DNA of 64,000 nucleotides, taken from assembly GCF_053078305.1 (NCBI RefSeq), contig NZ_CP166879.1. The stretch is one strand, 5' to 3'. Every line of letters begins with the position of its first letter. Within the stretch, counting starts at the first letter, position 1. A model generated the notes under the pieces. It worked only from the letters and a program-made list of their open reading frames with translations. It ran no database searches and was not told where the DNA came from. This document shows, piece by piece, positions 33,024 to 34,124 of this stretch. The translations under genes were made by a program, and so were the position numbers.

Positions 33024-34124
33024 ATGAAATTAAAAATAGTTGCGGTGGTTGTAACTGGTTTGTTAGCTGCGAACGTAGCACACGCTGCCGAAGTCTATAA
33101 CAAGGATGGTAATAAACTCGACCTTTATGGCAAGGTTACCGCTCTACGTTATTTTACTGATGATAAGCGTGACGATGGTGATAAAACTTATGCCCGTCTC
33201 GGCTTTAAAGGAGAAACGCAAATCAATGATCAAATGATTGGTTTTGGTCACTGGGAATATGATTTTAAAGGCTATAACGATGAAGCCAACGGCTCGCGCG
33301 GCAACAAGACCCGTCTGGCCTATGCTGGTTTAAAAATTAGTGAATTTGGCTCTCTGGACTATGGCCGTAACTACGGTGTCGGCTATGACATTGGTTCATG
33401 GACTGATATGTTGCCAGAATTTGGTGGCGATACCTGGAGTCAGAAAGATGTCTTCATGACATACCGTACCACCGGTGTAGCAACCTATCGCAACTACGAT
33501 TTCTTTGGCTTAATTGAAGGGCTGAACTTTGCCGCGCAATATCAAGGCAAAAATGAACGTACTGACAACAGTCATCTTTATGGTGCTGACTACACGCGTG
33601 CCAACGGTGACGGTTTCGGTATCTCCTCAACTTATGTTTATGATGGCTTTGGTATCGGAGCAGTGTATACCAAATCCGATCGGACAAATGCGCAGGAAAG
33701 AGCCGCTGCTAATCCTCTCAATGCCTCCGGTAAGAATGCAGAACTGTGGGCTACAGGTATAAAATATGATGCCAACAACATCTACTTTGCAGCTAATTAC
33801 GCTGAAACATTAAACATGACCACCTATGGCGATGGTTATATTTCTAACAAAGCACAAAGTTTTGAAGTGGTGGCGCAATATCAATTCGACTTCGGCTTGC
33901 GCCCCTCACTCGCTTACCTGAAATCGAAAGGCAGAGATCTGGGCCGCTACGGCGACCAGGACATGATTGAGTATATCGACGTTGGTGCGACGTATTTTTT
34001 CAACAAAAATATGTCGACCTATGTTGATTATAAAATCAACCTGATTGATGAAAGCGACTTTACCCGTGCCGTAGATATTCGCACCGATAACATCGTCGCT
34101 ACGGGCATTACCTATCAGTTCTAA
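33024..34124 (+). CDS. General bacterial porin (OmpC/OmpF/OmpN family), full length
   Basis: 366 aa with signal peptide ending [19 protein letters not shown] and C-terminal YQF; corresponds to the position of the yddL porin remnant in K-12. Confidence 0.85.

Follow-up and report, generated by a model that had tools for sequence, protein, structure and literature searches.

The intact yddG-linked porin gene of Escherichia coli: a probable vertically inherited counterpart of Salmonella ompD

We describe a porin gene of Escherichia coli that follows yddG on the plus strand of a 64,000-nucleotide stretch of contig NZ_CP166879.1 (RefSeq assembly GCF_053078305.1); we refer to this whole stretch as the window. 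We hold with good confidence that the gene, at 33024..34124, encodes a complete and probably functional general-diffusion porin, that it is the counterpart of Salmonella OmpD by position and descent, and that its product is most likely a minor, condition-dependent porin. It is most likely a vertically inherited gene, rather than part of an imported island or a version of the prophage gene nmpC. We define the exact deletions behind the K-12 remnants yddL and yddK, separate the history of the porin from that of the leucine-rich repeat (LRR) genes beside it, show by position that the gene corresponds to Salmonella ompD instead of being an extra copy of OmpN/OmpC type, and present indirect evidence for a porin that is selected but weakly expressed.

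The gene is a single open reading frame (ORF) that starts with ATG, specifies 366 amino acids, and ends in TGITYQF. Pfam Porin_1 (PF00267) matches residues 27-366 over the entire profile (1-337 of 337) with 448.8 bits, against a cutoff of 23.7. The PDB porins OmpK36, OmpC, and OmpK37 match the whole mature protein at E values of ~1e-125 to 1e-127, and end-to-end matches among the solved porins OmpK36, OmpC, OmpK37, OmpF, and PhoE range from 1e-127 to 1e-100. The signal peptide ends in AHA and the mature part starts with AEVYNK, in register with the ANA/AEVYNK junction of OmpC; cleavage is predicted after AHA. The C-terminal YQF supplies the final aromatic Phe that would serve outer-membrane assembly. 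The initial annotation of an intact 366-residue porin with a signal peptide and a terminal YQF is thus borne out by the ORF, the full-length family match, and the PDB matches: the ORF is real and complete, with all the sequence hallmarks of a general-diffusion porin.

The predicted fold and the pore agree with this assignment. An AlphaFold model built on an alignment of 29 porins contains 16 long strands, a short N-terminal strand, and an internal loop bearing a helix, L3 (pLDDT 69.6, pTM 0.71); superposed on OmpC, OmpK36, OmpK37, and OmpF, it gives TM-scores of 0.85-0.91 and rmsd values of 2.4-3.0 A. Aligned with OmpC and OmpF, the protein retains counterparts of OmpC K16, R37, R74, D105, E109, and R124, that is, both the opposing basic cluster (K16, R37, R74, and R124) and the acidic Asp/Glu residues of the loop. 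None of P131, E132, G134, R58, R97, and R148 varies across the 29 porins, and F133, G135, and D136 are nearly invariant. The encoded protein would be a 16-strand barrel of the trimeric type, in the OmpC/OmpF/PhoE family of general diffusion porins. It would be exported by Sec and cleaved after AHA, then inserted through its C-terminal Phe in a manner dependent on the BAM assembly machinery; small hydrophilic solutes would diffuse passively through a pore narrowed by loop L3. As a separate observation, codon 147 (33462-33464) specifies Tyr in both Escherichia species (FMTYRTTG) and Gly in NmpC and in the OmpD proteins of Salmonella and Citrobacter koseri (FMTGRTTG). This residue directly precedes the arginine equivalent to OmpC R124 of the basic cluster, and an effect of Tyr147 on pore size or selectivity is possible.

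What kind of porin is it? Outside Escherichia, the highest identities are to the yddG-locus porins of C. koseri (78%) and Salmonella (OmpD, 72-74%). The E. coli NmpC/Lc-type porins follow at 66-71%, then K-12 OmpC and OmpN at 59-62% (OmpC at 60-62%) and OmpF and PhoE at 56-60%. The initial annotation had placed the protein in an OmpN/OmpC family. This holds if the family is taken broadly, as the general porins OmpC/OmpF/PhoE/OmpN, and fails in the narrow sense, since OmpN and OmpC are no closer to it than OmpF and PhoE; the alignment to OmpN, OmpD, and NmpC that it had proposed instead identifies Salmonella OmpD (74%) as the nearest characterized relative and the positional counterpart. Orthology with OmpC can be rejected: the gene sits in the yddG-narU locus and not in ftp-ompC-micF-rcsD, and identity is 60-62%. 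Orthology with OmpN fails likewise, as the locus is not uspF-ompN-micC-ydbK, identity is 59-62%, and OmpN branches elsewhere in the protein tree. RefSeq names the protein "porin OmpC" because its best NCBIfam model, the subfamily "porin OmpC", is just passed: the score is 496 bits against a cutoff of 484, a margin of 12 bits.

Gene order, upstream DNA, and shared motifs connect the gene to ompD. Salmonella and C. koseri carry, in sequence, fdnI-fdnH-fdnG on the minus strand, yddG and the porin on the plus strand, a GFA-family gene, an MFS transporter and a TetR regulator (smvA/smvR-like), narU, and narZ. The window carries fdnG (minus), yddG (plus, 31884-32765), the porin, three LRR ORFs, narU, and narZ. 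Approximately 200 bases upstream of the ATG can be aligned in four species, E. coli, E. albertii, C. koseri, and Salmonella; GATCACA, CGTTTA, and AATTAnAAGGATT-ATG are conserved blocks. The motifs AYLKSKG and EYIDVGATY are common to the yddG-locus porins and are not found in NmpC. On these grounds, the window porin is the Escherichia positional counterpart of Salmonella ompD. A relative in E. fergusonii resides at another chromosomal locus, next to a second porin.

Sequence similarity alone could suggest a different counterpart, namely that E. coli has its true ompD equivalent in prophage nmpC and that the window gene is a different, older paralogue that happens to lie beside yddG. Salmonella OmpD is more similar to NmpC (80-82%) than to the window porin (74%), and a neighbor-joining protein tree with 100 bootstraps joins the NmpC and OmpD clades before the Escherichia gene, which forms a long basal branch of the OmpD+NmpC group, apart from OmpC, OmpN, OmpF, and PhoE. 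In addition, the ompD-like gene of E. coli is usually given as nmpC (PMC3333887), an equation that rests on similarity. Yet the node in question has a bootstrap of 35%, and the long branch can be explained by lost codon bias, which also accounts for the saturation of synonymous divergence (dS) between the window gene and those of Salmonella and C. koseri. Orthology is neither confirmed by the tree nor refuted by it, and rests for this reason on synteny, leader homology, and shared motifs; slot, leader, and locus-specific motifs are all common to ompD and the window gene. NmpC/Lc-type genes are located in lambdoid prophages, between the Q antiterminator and the holin/lysis genes, and as prophage cargo they cannot be positional orthologues. 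We therefore consider the nmpC explanation improbable and retain ompD as the counterpart. Between Salmonella and C. koseri themselves, dS is only 0.60 for ompD but saturated for the neighboring yddG; the low value is probably due to strong codon bias, and exchange of the gene between genera may be an alternative.

In K-12, the same slot holds a fragment. Downstream of yddG, MG1655 carries yddL, an ORF of 276-291 bp that RefSeq labels "porin, incomplete, missing C-terminus"; the curated record (b1472) lists 96 amino acids and a "putative uncharacterized protein". K-12 DNA matches the window until 33304 and again from 34845, and each break falls at a copy of the hexamer CGGCAA. K-12 lacks 1,546 bases between these hexamers, a stretch that corresponds to O-island 62 in the strict sense. 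K-12 YddL consists of porin codons 1-93, followed out of frame by three codons (K N L) and a stop. The claim of the initial annotation that K-12 has only a short yddL remnant agrees with these junctions, and the comparison with K-12 yielded no full-length porin there. A 1,546-bp deletion between the CGGCAA repeats took porin codon 94 onward, together with the first LRR ORF, from K-12-like strains, leaving yddL. A second K-12 deletion comprises 653 bases between copies of CATTGATTTATC at 35159-35170 and 35812-35823 (K-12 locus ~6841-6860). It joins the N-terminal part of the second LRR ORF to the espR1-like ORF, such that K-12 yddK is a chimera.

The gene itself is ordinary and already documented, as Z2239 of O-island 62 and in RefSeq. 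Okeke et al. (2011; PMC3079680) described enterohaemorrhagic E. coli (EHEC) O-island 62 as 1,548 bp in EDL933, with ORFs z2239-z2242 between yddG and narU; they reported it in O157:H7, O55:H7, phylogroup D enteroaggregative (EAEC) and uropathogenic E. coli, and Shigella, and likened K-12 yddL to the 5' end of z2239. The word "porin" has 0 occurrences in that paper. Its explanation of the K-12 state, insertion of yddK, is rejected here: the junctions are those of deletions at 6-bp and 12-bp direct repeats. At least 1,000 contigs carry the exact window protein, named "porin OmpC" or "outer membrane porin protein"; we used the exact-sequence record alone, as its 90% cluster also held 603-residue LepA/EF4 proteins of Roseburia, evidently an indexing artefact. 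The K-12 fragment has attracted attention of its own. The 96-residue YddL was discussed in 2023 as a possible small and functional four-strand barrel protein (PMC9976479), and yddL is among genes "essential only by TraDIS", a transposon insertion sequencing method (PMC5821084); an H-NS explanation for this call was sought within PMC5821084 and not found. Both proposals are better explained by yddL being a short deletion remnant with AT-rich flanks.

The LRR genes next to the porin raise the question of shared ancestry. For the whole island, Okeke et al. inferred recent acquisition from its 33-36% GC (PMC3079680), and one could extend this to the porin, as an OmpC/OmpN-like paralogue imported horizontally with the low-GC island and its LRR genes. 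The yddG-narU segment is indeed variable among strains and missing in B2 strains, its overall GC is low, and the porin, at 0.44, falls below flanks of ~0.50-0.55. However, the same GC of 0.44 is found in K-12 phoE and ompN and stands well above the 0.32-0.35 of the LRR ORFs. The type strain of E. albertii carries an intact porin of 366 amino acids with 92% identity directly after yddG. In a second strain of that species (CP034213.1), the porin is split by the insertion sequence IS1 (6388-7164) at the equivalent of window ~33268-33274; the 9-bp target duplication is AAGGTTACA, and taking out IS1 with one of the two duplicate copies restores the frame. In both strains, ~115 bases past the stop, the sequence rejoins the window at 37006 onward. 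Window positions ~34123-37005 are thus missing from E. albertii, which lacks the LRR block even though it has the porin. Related porins occupy the same slot in Salmonella and C. koseri as well, and the upstream noncoding DNA is homologous across these genera. Finally, among divergent E. coli alleles, porin dS (0.084-0.089) equals that of the adjacent yddG (0.08-0.09).

Taken together, the E. albertii porin without LRR genes, the GC gap, and the yddG-like dS indicate that the porin is an old resident and the LRR genes a later insertion. Import of the whole island as a unit is rejected for the porin on the same three grounds; for this gene the import explanation is largely refuted, and we assign it a very small probability. 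Under vertical inheritance, the porin would have occupied the yddG locus before E. coli and E. albertii separated; E. coli would later have gained the low-GC LRR effector-like genes, as a block, just 3' of the porin; and everything between yddG and narU is missing in B2 strains.

The distribution of the gene reflects repeated loss. We surveyed 5,426 complete E. coli genomes with a query of 1,535 bases. Some part of it is matched in 5,390 of the 5,426, and the 3' part that is missing from K-12 is present in 1,118, with at least 80% of it in 1,101. Most remaining genomes end at or near the K-12 junction. A group of ~1,100 genomes in the 90-95% identity band, all of B2 type (EC958, CFT073, and ST131, for example), matches only the first ~84 bases past yddG. 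Strain JSWP006 has another type of truncation, and in SCU-482 the porin gene is split. With the IS1 insertion of E. albertii, there are at least 5 independent kinds of inactivation or loss (K-12 deletion, JSWP006 truncation, B2 absence, E. albertii IS1, and SCU-482 split); the K-12, JSWP006, B2, and IS1 states are independent losses. In an evenly stepped sample of 60 carriers, the coding sequence is annotated as intact in 58, split in one, and a fragment in one. About 20% of complete E. coli genomes retain the porin, O157:H7 included. It is intact in the O157-type, D8, ECE313, and AF40 alleles, with O157-type alleles differing by 2 amino acids.

Beyond E. coli, a scan of species-representative genomes with a motif-specific pattern, which is blind to diverged copies and therefore carries little weight for other Escherichia species, matched only E. 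albertii and one contig of a metagenome-assembled genome. This contig, the 1.9-kb JAIJJM010000616.1 assigned to "Collinsella sp.", is a mis-binned Escherichia fragment with a mosaic porin at 31-1131. The first ~115 residues are of another porin type (MKRKVLAMLVPALLVAGAANA..., QWEFNIGANGPESDKGNTATRLAFAGLGFGQNG), the other ~250, apart from one N to G substitution, are nearly those of the window protein, and next comes the first LRR ORF. The mosaic is either a product of recombination between paralogues or a chimera of metagenome assembly; a further sequence with 85% identity is probably the same mosaic.

Is the intact ORF merely a silent relic heading for loss, whose intactness has no functional meaning? 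The recurrent inactivation, the weak codon bias, the AT-rich upstream region, and the absence of published expression data from our literature searches would all fit such a gene. Selection at the protein level does not. Divergent alleles, which differ at ~8% of synonymous sites, are separated by 19-20 synonymous changes and 1 nonsynonymous change, a ratio of nonsynonymous to synonymous divergence (dN/dS) of ~0.013; this implies strong purifying selection on the protein, as strong as on yddG, and speaks against a silent relic. In comparisons with C. koseri and Salmonella, dN/dS comes to 0.03-0.07. Moreover, ~97% of sampled carriers have an intact coding sequence, and the signatures of pore, export, and assembly are all kept between E. 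coli and E. albertii. Quiescent porins with the same codon profile can be functional, as OmpN is according to Prilipov 1998 in the citation given by PMC3333887. We judge the relic explanation highly unlikely and favor a working porin.

How strongly might this porin be expressed? Codon usage serves here as a proxy for expression (Table 1), and the bias of the window porin is that of a minor porin such as OmpN or PhoE, unlike that of Salmonella and C. koseri ompD, which is close to ompC and ompF.

Table 1. Codon usage of the window porin gene and of reference porin genes. Fop, frequency of optimal codons; the C-ending fraction is taken over the codons for F, Y, N, D, H, and I.
Gene	Fop	C-ending fraction	Rare codons
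Window porin	0.57	0.41	9
K-12 ompN	0.68	0.44	7
K-12 phoE	0.55	0.36	8
Salmonella / C. koseri ompD	0.83 / 0.87	0.73 / 0.78	1 / 0
K-12 ompC	0.92	0.87	0
K-12 ompF	0.81	0.71	1

Control by small RNAs also differs between the two genes. In Salmonella ompD, MicC pairs at codons 23-26 (PMC3333887) and RybB near codons 6-9 (site definitions for both from PMC3333887 and PMC4911921). The MicC site of Salmonella and C. koseri ompD forms a 12-bp duplex of -15.5 kcal/mol, matched by 1 of 300 shuffles; in E. coli and E. albertii, this complementarity is missing, and the best MicC pairing in the window lies elsewhere, at -7.7 kcal/mol, with 156 of 300 shuffles as good. RybB pairing at +18, computed with RNAduplex, is -13.7 kcal/mol in the window against -18.3 in Salmonella, a marginal result for which 25 of 300 shuffles are as good. 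Small-RNA control within the coding sequence is a regulatory trait of Salmonella ompD and no criterion of descent. Given the minor-porin codon usage and the lost MicC site, the window gene most likely encodes a working but minor or condition-dependent porin. Upstream, GC drops to 0.32 over 32800-33199, and weak sigma-70-like matches at 32864-32892 and 32949-32978 are within shuffle expectation. A scan of window 31500-37500 against Rfam at E<=0.1 gave no match. Table 2 lists the features of the locus.

Table 2. Features at the yddG-narU locus, in window coordinates.
Feature	Position	Strand	Basis or remark
yddG-porin intergenic region, AT-rich promoter and leader	32766..33023	+	Four-way alignment; last ~200 bases homologous
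Segment missing from B2-type strains such as EC958, where narU directly follows yddG	32850..37005		Genome comparison
Shine-Dalgarno-like AAGGA, 9 bases 5' of ATG	33010..33014	+	Read from sequence; kept in all four species
Porin coding sequence	33024..34124	+	366 codons and stop; EDL933 Z2239, full-length form of K-12 yddL
Signal peptide, 21 codons	33024..33086	+	Column-for-column alignment with the OmpC signal peptide
Equivalent of the Salmonella ompD seed target for RybB (TGCGGTGGTT)	33041..33050	+	Pairing kept, weakened by two G-U wobbles
Equivalent of the MicC target, codons 23-26	33089..33103	+	Complementarity lost: GAAGTCTATAAC here versus GAGGTATATAAC
Left CGGCAA microhomology, codon 94, end of K-12 yddL match	33299..33304	+	Junction alignment
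PEFGGD motif (codons 131-136) in constriction loop L3	33414..33431	+	29-porin alignment and alignment with OmpC/OmpF
Intrinsic terminator: stem of 9 bp (6 G-C pairs) followed by T-run TTTTTGATTT	34136..34159	+	Begins 12 bases past the stop
Low-GC LRR block: ORFs 34288-34797, 34884-35552, and espR1-like 35594-36871	34288..36871	+	GC 0.32-0.35; apart from the porin gene, separate history
Right CGGCAA microhomology	34845..34850	+	Junction alignment

Some neighboring features deserve mention. The ORF at 35594-36871 is named "T3SS effector leucine-rich repeat protein EspR1" by RefSeq in O157-type genomes, where T3SS denotes the type III secretion system. Matches in NCBIfam are weak and at the level of the repeat only (SlrP, SspH2, and XopAC). 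The first two LRR ORFs correspond to the frameshifted EHEC pair z2240/z2241, which is one ORF in EAEC 042 (PMC3079680). On the other side of yddG, fdnG (28605-31652, minus strand) appears as two ORFs of 803 and 195 amino acids because it encodes selenocysteine by an in-frame TGA, as formate dehydrogenase-N normally does; it is not a pseudogene. Downstream of narU, E. albertii CP034213.1 carries another fragment of IS1, along with an Rhs/VgrG cluster.

Several points weigh against our interpretation of a functional porin that is the counterpart of OmpD. Loss has recurred in most lineages, which implies that the gene is dispensable. Our searches of the literature, with supplementary tables outside their scope, found no functional study of the full-length gene (expression, localization, or channel data). 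The scan for sigma-70-like promoters gave 8 sites where shuffles predict 5.1 +/- 2.0. The confidence of the structural model is moderate (pLDDT 69.6), and L3 is poorly resolved. To these we add the greater similarity of Salmonella OmpD to NmpC and the low bootstrap of the basal node discussed above.

The importance of the finding is modest, and it has practical sides. O157:H7 and the phylogroup D lineages of Okeke et al. are among the roughly one fifth of sequenced E. coli that have one conserved general porin more than K-12. Under the RefSeq label "ompC", carrier genomes seem to hold two ompC genes. A positional counterpart of OmpD other than nmpC affects comparisons of porin regulons between E. 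coli and Salmonella. The initial annotation had raised permeability and the repertoire of phage or colicin receptors; a role in permeability, in phage or colicin susceptibility, or in antigenicity is plausible by analogy with the carbapenem-importing, yddG-linked OmpD of Enterobacter (PMC11874173). A bolder scenario, which we offer tentatively and regard as rather doubtful, goes further. Here, the porin that E. coli and E. albertii have next to yddG would be the true descendant of the ompD ancestor, demoted to an accessory porin of low expression, with the MicC site lost and Gly changed to Tyr before the R124 equivalent. Phylogroups D, E, and F, to which O157:H7 belongs, would nevertheless keep it under strong selection, as a lineage-specific route of antibiotic entry and a lineage-specific receptor for phages, colicins, or antibodies, and its repeated losses elsewhere would reflect selection against this target.

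Among known systems, the first ORF of EHEC O-island 62, EDL933 Z2239 or Sakai ECs2074, is the same gene; as published (PMC3079680), it was never called a porin, and the state of K-12 was put down to yddK. E. coli OmpC and OmpN belong to the same Pfam family and have the same fold, and differ in location: ompC adjoins micF and rcsD, and ompN adjoins micC and ydbK. The E. coli NmpC and phage Lc porins fall into the same OmpD/NmpC subgroup (68-71% identity); unlike the window porin, they are prophage cargo that is not at yddG, and they lack AYLKSKG and EYIDVG. The OmpD of Enterobacter hormaechei resembles the window porin in that it adjoins yddG, with one 2,384-nt deletion that disrupts both genes, and in that it is variably present across its genus; its contributions to carbapenem import and virulence have been shown experimentally (PMC11874173). 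The closest parallel is Salmonella enterica OmpD (STM1572, also NmpC in Salmonella annotation). The two genes share the slot from fdnGHI-yddG to narU-narZ and a homologous leader, and their products share 74% identity, above that with any characterized chromosomal K-12 porin, as well as length class, pore-lining residues, and the position of the RybB seed. They differ in that Salmonella ompD has a Fop of 0.83 (0.57 in the window porin), retains its own 12-bp MicC site at codons 23-26, and is followed by the GFA-family and smvA/smvR-like genes where the window has LRR genes. Salmonella has more OmpD than any other porin (PMC4215857); the abundance of the window porin is predicted to be low.

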